Origin: an uncultured Rhodospirillaceae bacterium
GTDB taxonomy: Bacteria; Pseudomonadota; Alphaproteobacteria; Rhodospirillales; Magnetospirillaceae
DNA: 64,000 bases
Direction: 5' to 3'
NCBI GenBank assembly: GCA_964545205.1
Contig: CAZJFH010000014.1
Coordinates: forward strand, 775 to 64,774
Position 1 is the stretch's first letter. The number at the start of each line of letters is the position of its first letter. A model generated the notes under the pieces. It worked only from the letters and a program-made list of their open reading frames with translations. It did no database searches and had not been told where the DNA came from. A program made the position numbers and the translations under genes. Below, piece by piece: positions 3,755-36,070 of the stretch.

Positions 3755-4666
3755 ATGCTTCCCAAGCGCGTCAAGATCGTCGAGGTCGGCCCCCGCGACG
3801 GGCTGCAGAACGAGACGGCGATCGTGCCGACCGCGGTCAAGGTCGAGCTGATCGACCGGCTGTCAGCGGCCGGCCTGCCGGTGGTCGAGGCCGGCAGCTT
3901 CGTCTCGCCGAAATGGGTGCCGCAGATGGCCGACACGCCCGAGGTGCTGGCGCGCATCAATCGGCGGCCGGGCGTCGCCTATCCGGTGCTGGTGCCCAAC
4001 ATGAAGGGGCTGGAGGGCGCGCTGGCCGCCGGGGTCGAGGAGATCGCGGTGTTCGGCGCCGCGTCGGAAGCGTTCTCGCACAAGAACATCAACTGCTCGA
4101 TCGCCGAGAGTCTGGAGCGCTTCGCGCCCGTCGTCGCGGCGGCGCGCGACAAGGGCCTGCGGGTGCGCGGCTACGTCTCGTGCGTGCTCGGCTGCCCATA
4201 CCAGGGCGCGGTGCCCGCCGAGAGCGTCGCCGCCGTCGCCGAGCGGCTGTTCGCGCTCGGCTGCTACGAGATTTCGCTGGGCGACACCATCGGCACCGGC
4301 ACGCCGGCCAAGGCCCAGGCGATGGTCGATGCCGTCGCGGCGCGGCTGCCGGTCGACAGGCTGGCGGCGCATTTCCACGACACCTACGGTCAGGCGCTGG
4401 CCAACCTGTACGCGGTGATGGAACGGGGGGTGGCGGTGATCGACGCCTCGGTCGCCGGACTCGGCGGCTGTCCCTATGCCAAGGGCGCCTCGGGCAACGT
4501 CGCCACCGAGGACGTGCTCTACATGCTCGACGGCATGGGCGTCGAGACCGGCGTCGCCTTGGACGCGCTGCTCGCCGCCGGCGGCTTCATCTGCGGCCGG
4601 CTCGGGCGGGAGCCGGCCTCGAAGGTGGCGCGCGCGCTCGCGGTCGCGGCTCCAACGAAAGGGTGA
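3755..4666 (+). CDS. liuE: hydroxymethylglutaryl-CoA lyase
   Basis: Motifs [20 protein letters not shown] and ...[12 protein letters not shown]...GLGGCPYA are typical of HMG-CoA lyase. The ATG at 3755 lies after the repeat. Confidence 0.9.
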
Positions 4667-4721
4667 CGCCCCTGCGACCTCGGTATATACATCAAGTCCG
4701 TTGATTTGATGGTGCGAGGGA

Positions 4722-5267
4722 ATGCTGCCGTTCGACCCCGCTGCTCTGAAGGTGCTCGTGGTCGAGGACAGCGAGCATTTCCGCCTGTTGATCCGCACCG
4801 TCCTGCACAGCATGAACATCCGCGACGTGCGCGAGGCGGCGGACGGCACCGAAGCGCTGGCCGTGCTGCGCGAATTCGCCGCCGACCTGCTGATTCTCGA
4901 CTACAAGATGGAGCCGATGGACGGCATCAGCTTCGTGCTGAAGCTGCGCCGCTCGGCCGAGAGCCCGAACCCCTACGTGCCGATCGTGATGGTCACCGCC
5001 TATGCCGAGGCCAGCCTGGTGCGCGAAGCGCGCGACGCCGGCATCGACGAGTTCCTGACCAAGCCGCTGTCGGCGAACGGGCTGATGACCCGCATCATCG
5101 GCGCGCTGCAGCACCGGCGCCGATTCGTGCGCAACGACACCTATGTCGGTCCCGACAGGCGGCGCCAACAGGTGGCCTTCACCGGACCCGACCGGCGCCG
5201 GCCGGCCGAGGGCGAACCGGAGGCGGGCGAATTCGCCCCTTCCGCGCAGGATCGCGTTGAGACTTGA
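4722..5267 (+). CDS. single-domain CheY-like response regulator with an arginine-rich C-terminal tail (two GPDRRR motifs)
   Basis: Receiver motifs VLVVEDS...DLLILDYKMEPMDG...VMVTA...KP, followed by the tail YVGPDRRRQQVAFTGPDRRRPAEGE. Confidence 0.85.
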   Translation: MLPFDPAALKVLVVEDSEHFRLLIRTVLHSMNIRDVREAADGTEALAVLREFAADLLILDYKMEPMDGISFVLKLRRSAESPNPYVPIVMVTAYAEASLVREARDAGIDEFLTKPLSANGLMTRIIGALQHRRRFVRNDTYVGPDRRRQQVAFTGPDRRRPAEGEPEAGEFAPSAQDRVET

Positions 5268-5369
5268 TATCTTTGGCTTCCTGTCCGTCCATAATGGCGA
5301 TAGAATTCGGCAAAACATGATTGGTCCGACCGGATTCCACCCGTCGGAGCGGAGACGAGCGGTTCGCGT

Positions 5370-5936
5370 ATGGGCGGTTACAACCTCGACAGACTGAACT
5401 TCCTGGTCGTCGACGACAACAAGCACATGCGGGCGCTGGTCAAGACCATCCTGCATGCCCTGGGCTCGAAGAGCGTCGTCGAGGCGGCCGACGGCGCCGA
5501 CGCGTTCAAGGAACTGCGGCACTTCCCCGCCGACATCATCATCTGCGACTGGAACATGTCGCCGCTCGACGGCCTCGACTTCGTGCGCCTGGTGCGCACC
5601 GGCAAGGACAGCCCGAATCCCTTCGCGGCGATCATCATGCTGACCGGCCACACCGAGATGCACCGCGTCGTCGAGGCGCGCGACGCCGGCGTGCACGAGT
5701 TCCTGGCCAAGCCGATCTCGGCCAAGGCGCTGTATTCGCGCATCCGCTCGATCATCGAGCGGCCGCGGCCGTTCATCCGCACGGTGACCTATTTCGGTCC
5801 CGACCGCCGCCGCAAGCAGATGGACTACAAGGGCAAGGAGCGGCGCAAGTCGGCGGCCGCGGGCGGCGGTGCGGCGGCGGTCGATCCGGGCGGCGGCCTG
5901 AGCCAGGCCGAGATCGAGGCGCTGCTGAACGGCTAG
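5370..5936 (+). CDS. single-domain CheY-like response regulator with an arginine-rich C-terminal tail (paralog of 4722-5267)
   Basis: Receiver motifs FLVVDDN...DIIICDWNMSPLDG...IMLTG...KP, followed by the tail YFGPDRRRKQMDYKGKERRKS. Confidence 0.85.
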   Translation: MGGYNLDRLNFLVVDDNKHMRALVKTILHALGSKSVVEAADGADAFKELRHFPADIIICDWNMSPLDGLDFVRLVRTGKDSPNPFAAIIMLTGHTEMHRVVEARDAGVHEFLAKPISAKALYSRIRSIIERPRPFIRTVTYFGPDRRRKQMDYKGKERRKSAAAGGGAAAVDPGGGLSQAEIEALLNG

Positions 5937-5999
5937 GCTTGCGGCGGCGGCGGGCGTCCTGCCATAACTAGCCGCTGGGATTCACACGAGGGCAGCAGG

Positions 6000-6491
6000 A
6001 TGAGCGGCGACGACCACGAAATCATCAATCCGCCCAGCACCCTGAAGAACAAGGTCACCTACAGCGCGAGCGGCGTGGATCTGGCGATGCTGGAAAAGGC
6101 CGAGGAGATCATCGCCGGCCTGCAGGGCAGCTACCTCGAGTGGGTGCAGGAGGATCTCGAAAAGCTGCAGGCGCTGTTCGACCAGGCCCAGGCGACCGCG
6201 CCCGACCAGCGGACCGGACTGCTGTCCGAGATTTTCCGCATCGCCCATGACATCAAGGGCCAGGGCGGCAGCTTCGGCTACGACCTGATGACGGCGGTCG
6301 GCAACCAGCTCTGCCGCTTCGTCGAAAAGCTGGAGCGGGTCGGCGATGCCGAGCTCGAGGTGATCAAGCTGCACCTCGATTCGATGCGCCTGATCATCGG
6401 CGAGCGCATGGAAGGCTCGGGCGGCAAGGCCGGCGAGGAAATGGTCGCCGGCCTGCAGGCGGTCATCGCCAAGCTGCAGCAGAAGAAGTAG
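6000..6491 (+). CDS. Hpt (histidine phosphotransfer) domain protein
   Basis: The motif FRIAHDIKGQGGSFG matches the Hpt HxxKG phospho-histidine signature. The protein looks like a small all-helical one. Confidence 0.75.
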   Translation: MSGDDHEIINPPSTLKNKVTYSASGVDLAMLEKAEEIIAGLQGSYLEWVQEDLEKLQALFDQAQATAPDQRTGLLSEIFRIAHDIKGQGGSFGYDLMTAVGNQLCRFVEKLERVGDAELEVIKLHLDSMRLIIGERMEGSGGKAGEEMVAGLQAVIAKLQQKK

Positions 6492-6501
6492 CGCTCCCGC
6501 C

Positions 6502-7359
6502 TCACCCCGTCTCGACCGGCGTGTCGTCGCGCGCCCCCCATTCCGCCCACGAGCCGTCGTAGACCGAATGGCGCTTGTGCCCGACCAGGTGCAGGGCCAG
6601 CGCCAGCACGCAGGCGGTGACGCCCGAGCCGCACGAGCAGACCACCGGACGGTCGAGGTCGACGCCGCCGCGGCGGAACGCCTCGATCAGCTTGTCGTAG
6701 GGCTGCATCTTGCGGGTGCGCTCGTCGATCAGCTCGGTGAAGGGCACGTTGAAACTGCCGGGGATGCGGCCGACCTTCTTGACCGGCCACAGCTCGGGAT
6801 CGGTGCCGCGGAACCGGCCGGGGGCGCGGGCGTCGACGACCTGCTCGCGCTTGCTCTCCAGATTGGCCAGCAGGTCCTCGGTGGTGCGCAGCAGGGTGGT
6901 GTCGACGCGGGCCATGAAGTGGCGCTCGCGCGGCATCGGCGGCATGTCGTCGACTCGGCGCTGCTCGCGCAGCCAAGTCGGGAAGCCGCCGTCGACCACG
7001 GCGACGTCGTTGTGGCCGAACAGCCGGAACATCCACCACACCCGCGCCGCGGCGCTGGCGAAGCCGGTGCCGTCATAGACGACGACGCGGTTGCCGCTGC
7101 CCAGGCCAAGCTTGCGGACCTTGCTGGCGAACTTCTCGGGCGGCGGCACCATGTGCGGATAGGGCGTGGCGTCGGCGGCGATCTCGTCGATGTCGAAGAA
7201 CACGGCGCCGGGGATGTGCTCGGCCTGGTATTCGTCGCGCGCGTCGCGGTTCTGGATCGGCAGGTAATAGCTGGCGTCCACCACCCGCACGTCCGGCGCC
7301 GACAGGTGGGACTCCAGCCAGTCGGTGCCGACCAGCGCGTCGGGATTCGCGTAATTCAT
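6502..7359 (-). CDS. sseA: 3-mercaptopyruvate sulfurtransferase (tandem rhodanese)
   Basis: Two rhodanese domains. The active-site loop is CSCGSGVTAC (CGSGVTA type). Confidence 0.85.
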   Translation of the reverse strand: MNYANPDALVGTDWLESHLSAPDVRVVDASYYLPIQNRDARDEYQAEHIPGAVFFDIDEIAADATPYPHMVPPPEKFASKVRKLGLGSGNRVVVYDGTGFASAAARVWWMFRLFGHNDVAVVDGGFPTWLREQRRVDDMPPMPRERHFMARVDTTLLRTTEDLLANLESKREQVVDARAPGRFRGTDPELWPVKKVGRIPGSFNVPFTELIDERTRKMQPYDKLIEAFRRGGVDLDRPVVCSCGSGVTACVLALALHLVGHKRHSVYDGSWAEWGARDDTPVETG

Positions 7360-9206: not shown

Positions 9207-9680
9207 ATGACAACCGGACCTGAAACGGGCGCGCCGCGCTGGAGCGAGGCGCTGAGCGTCGGCGTGCCCGAAATCGACGCCGACCACAAGCTGCTGTTCG
9301 ACCTCGTGGACCAGGCGCGCGCGGCGATCGACGGCGCCGAGGTGGAATCGGTGCTGCCTTGCGTCCTCGCGGCGCTGATCGACTACACCGACTACCACTT
9401 CGCCCGCGAGGAGCGGATGCAGCAGGCGATCGGATTTTCCGAGGCCCGGGCGCACCGCGACCAGCACGAGATGCTGCGCCAGCGCGTTCGCGCCTTCGCC
9501 GCCGCCCTCGACGTCGGCGAGTTCGACCCGATCGCGCTGATCAGCTTCCTGGAAGCCTGGCTGGTCGAGCACATCGTCCGTCAGGACATGCGCTTCAAGC
9601 CGCTGGCGAACGGCAATCCGGCGGCGCGGCGAGCGGCGGCTTCGGTCGGCATCGAGTTCTTCATGGAGGCGGCGTCATGA
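9207..9680 (+). CDS. bacteriohemerythrin-like protein
   Basis: Metal-ligand pattern: IDADH..., YHFAREE, HRDQHEML, WLVEHIVRQD (H, HxxxE, HxxxH, HxxxxD). Confidence 0.8.
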   Translation: MTTGPETGAPRWSEALSVGVPEIDADHKLLFDLVDQARAAIDGAEVESVLPCVLAALIDYTDYHFAREERMQQAIGFSEARAHRDQHEMLRQRVRAFAAALDVGEFDPIALISFLEAWLVEHIVRQDMRFKPLANGNPAARRAAASVGIEFFMEAAS

Positions 9681-10129
9681 CCCTCGACGGCATGCGCATC
9701 CTGATCGTCGACGACAACCCCAACATGCGCCGCCTGATCACCACCATCCTGCAGAGCGCCGGCTCGGGCGAGATCCGGCATGCCGCCAGCGCCGAGGAGG
9801 CCATCGAGGTTCTCGACGGCTGGGTGCCGAACCTGATGCTGGTCGACTACGTGATGGAGGGCGAGGACGGCGCCAGCTTCACCCGCGCCGTCCGGGCCAG
9901 CTTCGGCGAGGCCGAGCCGCGGCTGCCGATCGTCATCGTCACCGGCCATGCCGATGTCGCCCGGTTCGACGCCGCGAAGGAAGCCGGCGCGAACGACTTC
10001 ATCGCCAAGCCGTTCAACCCGAAGACGCTCCTTCAGCGGATCGGCCGTGTCCTGCAGGACAACCTGACGATCAAGGAGCTCGAGACACAGGCGCGGCAGC
10101 GGCGCGAGGCCCTGGCTCAGCAGGACTGA
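9677..10129 (+). CDS. single-domain CheY-like response regulator
   Basis: Motifs [13 protein letters not shown]...[13 protein letters not shown]...IVTGH...AKP. Its ATG overlaps the hemerythrin stop (ATGA). Confidence 0.85.
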
Positions 10130-12194: not shown

Positions 12195-13403
12195 ATGAGC
12201 AGGAAGAGCAGGCGCCGCAGCCGGCGCCGCCAGATGAGAAGCGCCAAGCTGCGGACCTCGCTGCGGGCGTTGATGCGCCGGCTCGGCCACGAGGAGCTTC
12301 ACGGCGAGGCGATGCTGAGGGCCTGCCGCCGGGCCCTGATCCATGATCGCCGATTCCGCGACGCGCTTGCCAATCTCGGCGTCGCGCTGGCCGAGCAGGA
12401 CCGCGAGTTGCGTTACGTCTGGGCCTACAAGCCGTTCGGCGCGACCCCGGCGGATGAGATGGTCGGCCGCACCGACGCCGACCTGCTGCCGGCCGACAAC
12501 GCCGCCGCGCTGACCGAGGCCAAGCTGGCGGTGATCGCGGAACGCCGCGGAATGCGCCAAATCCTCGACCTGACGACGCCGACCGGCCGCAAGGTGCTCG
12601 ATATTCGCATCGAACCGGTCCTGGGGCCGGACGGCTGCGTCACGGGCGTGGTCACCGCCGCCCTCGACATCACCAACCACCAGCAGGTGGAGGACCTGTT
12701 GCGGCGGCAGCGGGACGAGGCCGAGGCGGCGGTCGTCTCGAAGAGCCGGGCCATCGCCCGCGCCAGCCACGACCTGCGCCAGCCGTTCCAGGCCATGCGG
12801 ATGTTCCACGAAGTCCTGTCGGCGCAACTGCAGACGCCGCGGCAGCAGATGGTCGCCGCGCGACTCGGCGAGGCGATGGCGGCCAGCGAAGAGTTGCTGA
12901 CCAACCTGCTGGAACTGTCGACCTTCGACAGCGGCCCGGTGCGGATCCATCTCGAGGAGTTTCCGGTCGCCGACGTGCTCGCCGCCCTCGACCTCGAGGG
13001 CTCGGGGCCGGCGGCGGCGAAGGGGCTGCGGCTGCGGGTCGTGCCGTCTTCGGCCCGCATCGTCAGCGACCGCGTCATGCTGACCCGGCTCATGCGCAAC
13101 CTGCTGGTCAACGCGATCCGCTACACCCGCCAGGGCGGAATCGTGTTGGGCGCGCGGCGGCGCGGCGACGAGGTGCTGCTCGAGGTGTGGGACACCGGCA
13201 TCGGCATCCCGCCGGACCAGATTCCGCTGATCTTCGAGGACTTCTACCGCGGCGGCAATGTCGGCGAGGCCGAGCGCGGGCTCGGCCTCGGACTGGCCGG
13301 GGTGGCGCGGCTGAGCCGCGTGCTGGCCCATCCGGTGACGGTGCGCTCGGTGCTGGGGCGCGGGTCGGTGTTTTCGGTCGCCGTCCCGGGCGCTGCGGAG
13401 TGA
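12195..13403 (+). CDS. PAS-domain sensor histidine kinase (the start may be at a downstream Met)
   Basis: H-box ASHDLRQPFQAM, N/G boxes NLLVNAIRYT...WDTGIGIP...GLGLGLA, and a PAS-like segment before the H-box. Confidence 0.85.
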   Translation: MSRKSRRRSRRRQMRSAKLRTSLRALMRRLGHEELHGEAMLRACRRALIHDRRFRDALANLGVALAEQDRELRYVWAYKPFGATPADEMVGRTDADLLPADNAAALTEAKLAVIAERRGMRQILDLTTPTGRKVLDIRIEPVLGPDGCVTGVVTAALDITNHQQVEDLLRRQRDEAEAAVVSKSRAIARASHDLRQPFQAMRMFHEVLSAQLQTPRQQMVAARLGEAMAASEELLTNLLELSTFDSGPVRIHLEEFPVADVLAALDLEGSGPAAAKGLRLRVVPSSARIVSDRVMLTRLMRNLLVNAIRYTRQGGIVLGARRRGDEVLLEVWDTGIGIPPDQIPLIFEDFYRGGNVGEAERGLGLGLAGVARLSRVLAHPVTVRSVLGRGSVFSVAVPGAAE

Positions 13404-34624: not shown

Positions 34625-34648
34625 TCGGCCGCGTCACGGCACGGTTTT

Positions 34649-34689
34649 CGAGGGTCTGCCCGCCCGGGCAGGCCCTCGATGCGTTTTGG
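34649..34689 (+). terminator. rho-independent terminator after rpsI
   Basis: The GC-rich stem CGAGGGTCTGCCCG/CGGGCAGGCCCTCG is followed by ATGCGTTTTGG. Confidence 0.5.
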
Positions 34690-34777
34690 TGATGATGATT
34701 CTCGCGCAACGGTGACGAGCGTCACTTTCCGGCAGATAACGCCGCCGTACATTGATCCCAGGATCGAACGACAAGAA

Positions 34778-36070
34778 ATGTCGGCTGGGAGAAAATCGAT
34801 GTTCGGGAAGAAAAAATCCGCACAGGAGCCTCGGGAATTCAGGCGCAAGGCCGTCGATTTCGAGCGCGAGCTCGTCGACTATGCCCGCGCCGCCTGCGCC
34901 GGGCGCAAGAATGCGTCGGTCGTGGTGGCGAACATTTCCGGCAGCGGAAGCTGCAACTACGAGAACTACGTCTACGCGATCAACATGTTCCGCTCGCTGG
35001 TCGGGCGCTTCGAGGGCCGGCTGTTCATCCTCAAGAGCCGCGACCTCGTCTTCGCCTATCAGGGCGCGATCGGCGAGCCGGCGATCCGCGAAGCGGTCTC
35101 GAACATCCGGCTGCTGTTCGAGATTCCGGGCGTCCCGCGTCGGGGCGACTTCGCCGCCTGGTACGACCTCGAGCGCGACGACGAGGCGTTGCTGGCCTAT
35201 GCCGAGGCGCAGTGGCGCGCCCGCGCCGAGCGCGAGGGGGCTGTCGAGACCGCCGAGGACACCGATCCGACCGCCGGCACCTTCGGCCGCTTCGCCCGGT
35301 TCATGTCCGCCTTCGAGGCGGCCGAGCTGGCGCCGCTGTTGCGGCGGCAGCCGTTGTGCCGGATCGGCGGCGACGGCGTTCCGGCGCCGCTGCGCCACGA
35401 GGTCTACGTCTCGATCCCGGACCTCGAGCGCTCGGTGCCCGGCGCCGCCGGCCTGGGCAGCGACCGCCATCTGTTCCATTACGTCGCCCGCGCCCTCGAC
35501 CGGCGCGTCCTCGGCGCGGCGCGGGGCGAGCTGGAGCGGCTGCCGGCCGGCATCTCGCTCAACCTCAACATGGCGACGGTGTCGTCGCCGGACTGGTCGG
35601 AATGGGCCTGCGCCCTCGACGCCGGCGAGCGTAGTCGCATCGCGGTCGAGATCGCCTATTCCGACGCGATGTCCGACATCGGCATGTTCCTCGCCGTCCA
35701 GCGCAAGCTGAGTGGGTTGGGCATGACGCTGGTGCTCGACGGATTGCCGGCCGAGATGCTGGCCTTCATCAATCTCGACGTCATGCGGGTCGATCTGGTC
35801 AAGGTGGTCTGGGACGCCGAACTGGCCGACGCCGGCTCCGCCGCCGGGCTGATCGAGACCGTCGCCCGATGCGGCGCCGACAGGTTCGCGCTGTGCCGCT
35901 GCGACGGTCCGGAAGCGGTGCGGTTCGGCCGCGCCCTCGGCATCGGCCTGTTCCAGGGCCGCCATATCGACCGGCTGCTGGCGGGCGAGCCGGAACCGGC
36001 CGCGCGGCGCACCGTCTCGCCGCCGCGGCGGCCGATCGGGTCCGCGGGGACGCCGCTGGTCTGCCTCTGA
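34778..36070 (+). CDS. protein with a degenerate (probably catalytically inactive) EAL-like C-terminal domain and an unknown N-terminal domain
   Basis: The block order parallels EAL domains, but key residues are replaced. RRQPLCRI...HEVYVSI stands for QP...EALxR. ISLNLNM stands for NxS. IAVEIAYSD stands for ExTE. LVLDGLP stands for DDFG. VDLVKVV stands for KxD. RCDGPEA stands for EGVE. LFQGRH stands for QG. Confidence 0.55.
   Translation: MSAGRKSMFGKKKSAQEPREFRRKAVDFERELVDYARAACAGRKNASVVVANISGSGSCNYENYVYAINMFRSLVGRFEGRLFILKSRDLVFAYQGAIGEPAIREAVSNIRLLFEIPGVPRRGDFAAWYDLERDDEALLAYAEAQWRARAEREGAVETAEDTDPTAGTFGRFARFMSAFEAAELAPLLRRQPLCRIGGDGVPAPLRHEVYVSIPDLERSVPGAAGLGSDRHLFHYVARALDRRVLGAARGELERLPAGISLNLNMATVSSPDWSEWACALDAGERSRIAVEIAYSDAMSDIGMFLAVQRKLSGLGMTLVLDGLPAEMLAFINLDVMRVDLVKVVWDAELADAGSAAGLIETVARCGADRFALCRCDGPEAVRFGRALGIGLFQGRHIDRLLAGEPEPAARRTVSPPRRPIGSAGTPLVCL

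Follow-up and report, generated by a model that had tools for sequence, protein, structure and literature searches.

What can a signaling locus accomplish that comprises two single-domain response regulators and a stand-alone Hpt protein, with no histidine kinase beside them? The question is raised by three genes, here called RR1, RR2, and Hpt (Table 1), in a 64,000-nucleotide stretch (the window) of contig CAZJFH010000014.1 from an uncultured Rhodospirillaceae bacterium (GCA_964545205.1). An initial annotation of this DNA had recognized two tandem CheY-like receivers followed by an Hpt protein, and on this the open reading frames (ORFs) agree with the Pfam Response_reg and Hpt matches. Judged by the sequence features that define the group, the locus is a conserved alphaproteobacterial cassette of chemotaxis-type parts and belongs to the kind of the Caulobacter Cle proteins; by the same kind of evidence it is distinct from the known Cle proteins in its retained phospho-acceptor, its dedicated Hpt protein of the CheA P1 type, and a built-in mimic of the N-terminal peptide of FliM (FliM_N). 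We consider it rather probable that the cassette is a module responding to the coincidence of a phosphorelay and cyclic di-GMP (c-di-GMP), and that it acts at, or imitates, the CheY/FliM interface.

To our knowledge, the Cle proteins are the only case in which a short linear peptide makes a CheY protein responsive to c-di-GMP. The cassette suggests that this device, the arginine-rich region (ARR), can also be mounted on a CheY that is still fully open to phosphorylation and is served by its own P1-type Hpt protein, rather than on one freed from phosphorylation control. This would apply to a large, highly conserved branch of the Alphaproteobacteria, with relatives of Magnetospirillum, Rhodospira, Insolitispirillum, and Telmatospirillum among its members. 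The motor's docking peptide, carried by the most conserved member, gives a concrete hypothesis for how a phosphorelay and a second messenger might be joined at the flagellar switch. The Cle ARR itself is already known; new here are the FliM_N-like tail of RR2, the P1-type Hpt protein, and the pairing of RR2 with Hpt across the order.

Arginine-Rich Tails of the Two Receivers

The ARR of the Cle proteins consists of tandem [Y/F]xGP[D/E][R/K]R motifs flanked by conserved Arg and Asp residues; Nesper et al. (2017, PMC5677366), who defined it, counted 302 proteins that contain it (294 from Alphaproteobacteria) and pointed out a conserved Arg in helix α4 as well. The tails of RR1 and RR2 are built on GPDRRR, as had been noticed initially. 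That of RR1 reads YVGPDRRR...FTGPDRRR, and its two copies (YVGPDRR and FTGPDRR) match the Cle consensus exactly; that of RR2 reads YFGPDRRRKQMDYKGKERRK, in which YFGPDRR is exact and YKGKERR has one change, a Lys at the position of Pro166 of CleD. Replacement of that residue (P166A) lowers the affinity of CleD only about 2-fold (PMC7382256, Table 1).

When each tail was searched by sequence against the whole PDB, the sole match was CleD in entry 6SFT (E = 1.3e-5 over 33 residues for RR2, and 0.02 for RR1), the nuclear magnetic resonance complex of the CleD peptide SKPREWVEAVAYVGPDRRRFNSADYKGPRKRKADAS and c-di-GMP, the latter present as an intercalated dimer (Hee et al. 2020, PMC7382256). The binding motif of CleD is DRR-x11-(R/K)RxxD, and a published alanine/deletion scan identified D154, R155, R156, Y163, G165, R168, and R169 as the most sensitive residues (PMC7382256); counterparts of all of them are present here. 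When RR2 is aligned with 114 homologues, the core of the ARR (F142, G143, P144, R146-R148, and R158) is invariant, as is R133, the conserved Arg that precedes the ARR. The first ARR copy occurs in 119, and both copies in 115, of the 120 closest RR2 homologues (the best 120 of 3794 matches at E <= 1e-10; 66-93% identity), which come from Telmatospirillum, Caenispirillum, Insolitispirillum, Rhodospira, Magnetospirillum, Magnetovibrio, Varunaivibrio, and many metagenome-assembled genomes (MAGs).

Among the relatives, a dimer of c-di-GMP is enclosed by the folded ARR, with a contribution from the α4 Arg (PMC5677366, PMC7382256). The candidate for this Arg in RR2, R104, lies within the predicted α4 helix (residues 97-106 of the AlphaFold2 [AF2] model), 44 positions after D60, and R113 of CleD lies 43 positions after E70, a comparison of spacing rather than a direct alignment. 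The motif alignment and the single structural match for each tail support the assignment of the RR1 and RR2 tails to the Cle-type ARRs, as the initial annotation had suspected, with binding of c-di-GMP as the predicted function.

Elsewhere in the genome, beyond the window, a lone Y[IVF]GPDRR[KS] half-site occurs in three open frames (304-363 amino acids; C7:93453-94541, C13:10137-11048, and C71:4087-5100), where a common segment (...PNPLR / PNTLR...) comes after it; the three appear to form a separate family that is based on half an ARR.

A FliM-Like Peptide at the C-Terminus of RR2

Beyond the ARR and a linker, RR2 ends in a peptide, absent from the initial annotation, that resembles the CheY-docking peptide of FliM (consensus LSQxEIDxLL; PMC5677366). 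The RR2 version, LSQAEIEALL, departs from the consensus in having Glu for Asp; for comparison, FliM_N of E. coli is MGDSILSQAEIDALL, and that of the source genome's FliM is VLNQDEIDSLLGF, carrying LNQDEIDSLL. The pattern L[STN]QxE[IVL]xxL[LF] terminates 107 of the 120 closest RR2 homologues, in each case after a variable linker. A looser FliM_N pattern was searched in all ORFs with high third-position GC content (GC3) of the 5.0-Mb genome (2.4 million residues) and was found at exactly three sites: FliM, RR2, and an ARR paralogue (C55:11414-11977). The latter two sites are at the extreme C-terminus, and the chance expectation for this pattern is a mean of 0.13 matches (30 shuffles). The AF2 model of RR2 has a C-terminal helix at residues 179-186 (mean predicted local distance difference test [pLDDT] of 77 for residues 181-188), preceded by a linker with pLDDT below 50 (residues 160-176). 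In Cle proteins the region past the ARR is termed a variable 'CTR' (PMC5677366), for which a FliM_N-like peptide such as that of RR2 is not described.

The C55 paralogue, on the reverse strand outside the window, is a second ARR receiver (FFGPDRR...YQGQEKR) that ends in MTQQEINRLVAGDDE; no Hpt gene adjoins it.

Receiver Domains

Both proteins match Pfam Response_reg (E = 1.3e-25 for RR1, residues 11-125; 2.7e-24 for RR2) and no other output domain was found in them; NCBIfam yields no equivalog, the best match of RR2 being CheY. RR1 and RR2 can be aligned through their tails, with 47% identity across 152 residues. The AF2 model of RR2 (pLDDT 79) has the CheY fold, and its best PDB matches in Foldseek are E. 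coli CheY, at 32-34% identity.

The residues of the phosphorylation pocket (D15, D16, D60 in a CheY-like DWNM context, T92, F111, and K114) are invariant in RR2 and its 114 homologues, and so is R104. In RR1 the pocket comprises E15, D16, D60, T92, and K114, and R104 is also present. The loss of the acceptor Asp, which the initial annotation had named as grounds for abandoning its proposal, is thus seen in neither receiver; D60 and the rest of the pocket are kept, and both proteins look phosphorylatable. RR1, although it has no FliM-like end, keeps a CheY-like α4-β5-α5 sequence.

The Hpt Protein and Its Candidate Phosphoryl Donors

The third gene encodes a protein that matches Pfam Hpt (PF01627) at E = 1.4e-8 (35.3 bits, compared with a cut-off of 24.6). 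Its candidate phospho-acceptor, H83 of HDIKG (an HxxKG-type motif), is invariant in 81 of 81 homologues, and D84, K86, Q88, and G89 are likewise invariant in the alignment. Sequence matches in the PDB are CheA P1 domains (8C5V, 1I5N, 2LP4, 1TQG, and 2LD6) and the designed repeat protein BRIC1. Its AF2 model consists of five helices (pLDDT 83), and Foldseek, too, ranks CheA P1 domains highest (8c5v, 1i5n, and 3kyi; template modeling score about 0.76, normalized on the target). Near the N-terminus, in a segment with pLDDT below 50 (residues 1-23), the pattern EIINPPxTLKxKV is conserved and may serve for docking; I9, P12, L15, and K18 are kept by 90% or more of the aligned proteins.

The source genome encodes FliM, 47 GGDEF domains, and about 139 HATPase_c matches. 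Among its 17 Pfam Hpt matches, the window protein is the sole small stand-alone one. A hidden Markov model census found 33 kinase ORFs that also bear a receiver; with those that contain a Pfam Hpt match and those with N-terminal receivers removed, about 18 classical hybrid kinases (C-terminal receiver) without an Hpt of their own remain. These are the obvious candidate phosphoryl donors. The idea that the window Hpt is the missing P1 domain of a split CheA was rejected; all three CheA genes of the genome, recognized by their H-kinase_dim matches, have their own Hpt/P1.

Several variants of the Hpt gene were seen elsewhere. Two receiver-less MAG loci (L006:6001-6477 and L022:6001-6477) have an in-frame stop in the Hpt frame, which is either decay or a sequencing error. 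Two tandem Hpt paralogues stand beside an ARR receiver in L093 (453-911 and 1001-1456) and in G061:C6:28740-30288. Many genomes of the order contain open frames of 355-390 amino acids with an Hpt-like region 33-37% identical to the window Hpt (e.g., G024:C1:2202511-2202903), and these may be Hpt proteins fused to another domain.

Conservation of the Receiver-Hpt Pair

To survey the pairing, 121 genomes were sampled evenly across the order, with a threshold of E <= 1e-58 for RR2 homologues. Hpt is present in 106 genomes and an RR2 homologue in 51; in 33 of these 51, representing 15 GTDB families, a comparison of coordinates places the receiver directly upstream of Hpt on the same strand. The RR2 match aligns through the C-terminal peptide in about 34 genomes, and in 27 of them the gene adjoins Hpt. 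Among 71 Hpt loci, the ARR receiver is immediately upstream in the closest relatives, and in Ferrovibrio it lies downstream and is convergent on Hpt. About 25 of the 71 loci have liu genes (enoyl-CoA hydratase, MCC alpha, and HMG-CoA lyase) and a DUF1489 gene, then Hpt, with no receiver; genomes with such receiver-less Hpt genes contain 7-13 RR2-matching receivers elsewhere (E <= 1e-15), mostly aligned through the ARR. An RR2 gene followed directly by an Hpt gene was found in Insolitispirillum, in Varunaivibrio, and in one ENA MAG, and the same receiver-Hpt order recurs in other alphaproteobacterial orders, with tails such as LSQDEVNALLS. The proposal of the initial annotation, that a His-Asp relay is integrated here with c-di-GMP, gains support from this conserved gene order.

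FliM is encoded by 32 of the approximately 34 genomes with a tail-bearing RR2; since it is present in 103 of the 121 genomes of the order, its co-occurrence is uninformative on a linkage to the motor.

Proposed Mechanism and Alternatives

In the mechanism that we favor, H83 of Hpt would be phosphorylated by some of the approximately 18 Hpt-less hybrid kinases, or in trans by a CheA core, and would pass the phosphoryl group to D60 of RR2 and of RR1. The ARR would be loaded with c-di-GMP, assisted by R104 of α4, and the two inputs would converge on the α4-β5-α5 face of the receiver, the surface on which FliM_N docks in CheY~P, as established for relatives. In RR2 this face could be occupied by the protein's own FliM-like tail, in a self-occluding or self-priming manner, as in engineered FliM_N-CheY fusions (see below). 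Phosphorylation and c-di-GMP would then jointly decide whether the receiver engages the flagellar switch. As the ARR starts right after α5 and contacts α4, one may speculate that, once loaded with c-di-GMP, it competes with the tail for a single surface. A more specific scheme, in which RR2-type proteins are natural 'self-docking' CheYs whose own tail, c-di-GMP-loaded ARR, and the motor's FliM_N compete for the α4-β5-α5 face while Hpt-driven phosphorylation sets the affinities, is offered tentatively, and we doubt it more than we believe it.

Several observations weigh against a coincidence module at the CheY/FliM interface. The RR2 family has no acidic residue after the second RR, and so lacks the Asp three residues past it that is part of the Cle motif (D172 in CleD, whose change to Ala costs the peptide about 10-fold in affinity; PMC7382256); RR1 has a Glu, one position out of register. 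About one-third of the genomes with an RR2 homologue have Hpt elsewhere. One genome (G073, 98% complete) has the RR2-Hpt pair and no detectable FliM; the module could conceivably operate in the absence of a flagellar motor, or the assembly could have a gap. Finally, the Cle proteins of Caulobacter act without phosphorylation (PMC5677366), whereas the RR2 family maintains its pocket strictly and has Hpt as a genomic partner; the invariant acceptor pocket and the Hpt partner together suggest that phosphorylation matters here, which would be a departure from Caulobacter.

Other functions can be imagined for the same parts. The RR2 tail might serve as a decoy in trans that captures the chemotaxis CheY~P or RR1~P in competition with the motor's FliM_N, with c-di-GMP binding at the neighboring ARR exposing or hiding it. 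The tail does match the peptide that CheY~P binds, the tail-less RR1 has a CheY-like α4-β5-α5 face, and the genome has three CheA systems; yet a tethered peptide is at a far higher effective concentration for its own receiver than for a free partner, and the face of RR2 itself is CheY-like and invariant, so that a decoy is unlikely. Sink CheYs are established in the Alphaproteobacteria, and a phosphate sink or buffer, in which RR1 and RR2, themselves without output to the motor, only drain Hpt and the hybrid kinases and set the flux to an unlinked output regulator, would suit single-domain receivers that have no output domain and a genome in which many orphan hybrid kinases would share one stand-alone Hpt. 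It would leave unexplained why the ARR and the FliM-like tail are so strictly conserved, as well as the high identity among the 120 closest RR2 homologues, and we hold it to be quite unlikely.

We give only a small chance to the view that the tails, instead of binding c-di-GMP, recognize a different ligand (some other nucleotide, nucleic acid, or polyphosphate) or dock Hpt. The missing C-terminal Asp of DRR-x11-(R/K)RxxD speaks for it, as do the Lys or variable residue of the RR2 family at the position of CleD Pro166 and the failure of the isolated CleA ARR to bind; however, the residues most critical in the CleD scan are all present, 6SFT is the only PDB match for either tail, and all five Caulobacter ARRs do bind c-di-GMP despite similar variation, that of CleA only when joined to its C-terminal region (PMC5677366). 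The loci with liu and DUF1489 genes and a receiver-less Hpt raise the further thought that Hpt belongs to a leucine-catabolism (liu) neighborhood into which receivers were inserted with no functional link. The pair recurs, however, in varied neighborhoods, in 15 families, in other orders, and in another orientation in Ferrovibrio, and this recurrence across families and orders largely refutes chance adjacency, which we regard as highly improbable.

Comparison with Known Systems

The Cle proteins of Caulobacter share with RR1 and RR2 their alphaproteobacterial origin, a single CheY-like receiver, the Arg preceding a tandem ARR, and, judged by position, probably the α4 Arg. They bind the flagellar switch through the N-terminal motif of FliM, independently of phosphorylation, and no Hpt partner is mentioned for them in PMC5677366, whereas the receiver here is paired with Hpt. 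No description of a Cle-Hpt pairing, or of a natural CheY with a FliM-like tail, was found in the literature searched, which left out most subscription journals. The nearest parallel to the tail is artificial: engineered FliM_N-CheY fusions (bioRxiv 10.1101/781468), like RR2, tether the docking peptide to a CheY-like domain, but RR2 is natural and its predicted docking peptide is C-terminal, behind a putative c-di-GMP-binding segment.

With regard to the Hpt protein, the P1 domain of CheA, including that of split CheA proteins (Rhodobacter sphaeroides CheA3 P1-CheY6, 3KYI), has the same five-helix fold with the His on the second helix and likewise pairs with a CheY-type receiver; the window Hpt differs in having no P2-P5 domains and in its conserved N-terminal motif, predicted to be disordered. 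A second counterpart belongs to the HmrABCX motile/sessile pathway of Caulobacter crescentus: HmrX (CC_1220), a CheA-P1-like Hpt protein that likewise stands alone. The hybrid kinase HmrA has been proposed to feed it, its phenotypes concern motility, holdfast, and c-di-GMP, and no receiver is known to act downstream of it (PMC11481889). HmrX and the window Hpt have the same nearest PDB entries (8C5V, 1I5N, and 2LD6), a likeness by description rather than by sequence comparison, and their candidate phospho-His residues are at positions 81 and 83, respectively. As far as PMC11481889 says, HmrX is not reported beside a cle gene, whereas the window Hpt adjoins an ARR receiver. The cassette may supply the output on which orphan hybrid kinases and HmrX-like Hpt proteins act; were the window Hpt an orthologue of HmrX, Cle-type receivers would be the missing output of motile/sessile relays of the HmrA-HmrX type throughout the Alphaproteobacteria.

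Gene Layout and Other Features of the Window

The three genes are co-oriented, with intergenic gaps of 102 nucleotides (RR1-RR2) and 63 nucleotides (RR2-Hpt). Upstream, an HMG-CoA lyase gene ends 55 nucleotides before RR1, and downstream of Hpt lies a convergent gene. No kinase is adjacent, as had been stated originally; the nearest histidine kinase gene (PAS-HisKA-HATPase) is at 12195-13403. Because a promoter/terminator scan over positions 4400-6800 returned zero sites, the operon boundaries were inferred from the 55-102-nucleotide gaps and the common strand.

Table 1. Features of the RR1-RR2-Hpt Cassette, with Positions Numbered in the Window
Feature	Positions	Strand	Basis
RR1, Cle-type single-domain receiver, 181 amino acids, without FliM-like end	4722-5267	+	ORF; Pfam Response_reg
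RR1 ARR, RRRFVRNDTYVGPDRRRQQVAFTGPDRRRPAE, with two exact [YF]xGP[DE][RK]R copies	5115-5210	+	Motif of PMC5677366; PDB match 6SFT
RR2, Cle-type CheY-like receiver, 188 amino acids, conserved partner of Hpt	5370-5936	+	ORF; Pfam, NCBIfam, Foldseek
RR2 receiver domain, intact phosphorylation pocket (D15, D16, D60, T92, F111, K114) and candidate α4 Arg (R104)	5403-5747	+	Homologue alignment
RR2 ARR, PRPFIRTVTYFGPDRRRKQMDYKGKERRK	5763-5849	+	PDB match 6SFT; invariant core residues
RR2 Gly/Ala linker of low complexity, differing in length and sequence from homologue to homologue	5850-5897	+	Homologues; AF2
RR2 FliM_N-like C-terminal peptide, LSQAEIEALLNG	5898-5933	+	FliM_N comparison; homologues; genome pattern search
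Stand-alone CheA-P1-type Hpt protein, 163 amino acids	6000-6491	+	ORF; Pfam Hpt
Hpt N-terminal motif, EIINPPSTLKNKV (residues 7-19), conserved, predicted disordered	6018-6056	+	Alignment; AF2
Hpt phospho-acceptor motif, AHDIKGQGGSFG (H83)	6243-6278	+	His invariant in homologues

The initial annotation had also listed a degenerate EAL protein and a cyclase-FHA protein among the other genes of the window. The former corresponds to a 481-amino-acid open frame at 34625-36067 (forward strand) with a sub-threshold EAL match (28.5 bits, compared with a cut-off of 31.3), and the latter was not located; no link was found between the EAL protein, 29 kb away, and the RR1-RR2-Hpt cluster. A hemerythrin-domain gene (9207-9680, forward strand) is followed directly by a gene for a single-domain receiver with no ARR (9683-10129, forward strand). 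Rare fusions of an ARR to hemerythrin are recorded in the Cle paper (PMC5677366), whereas in the window the hemerythrin domain and the receiver are encoded by separate genes.

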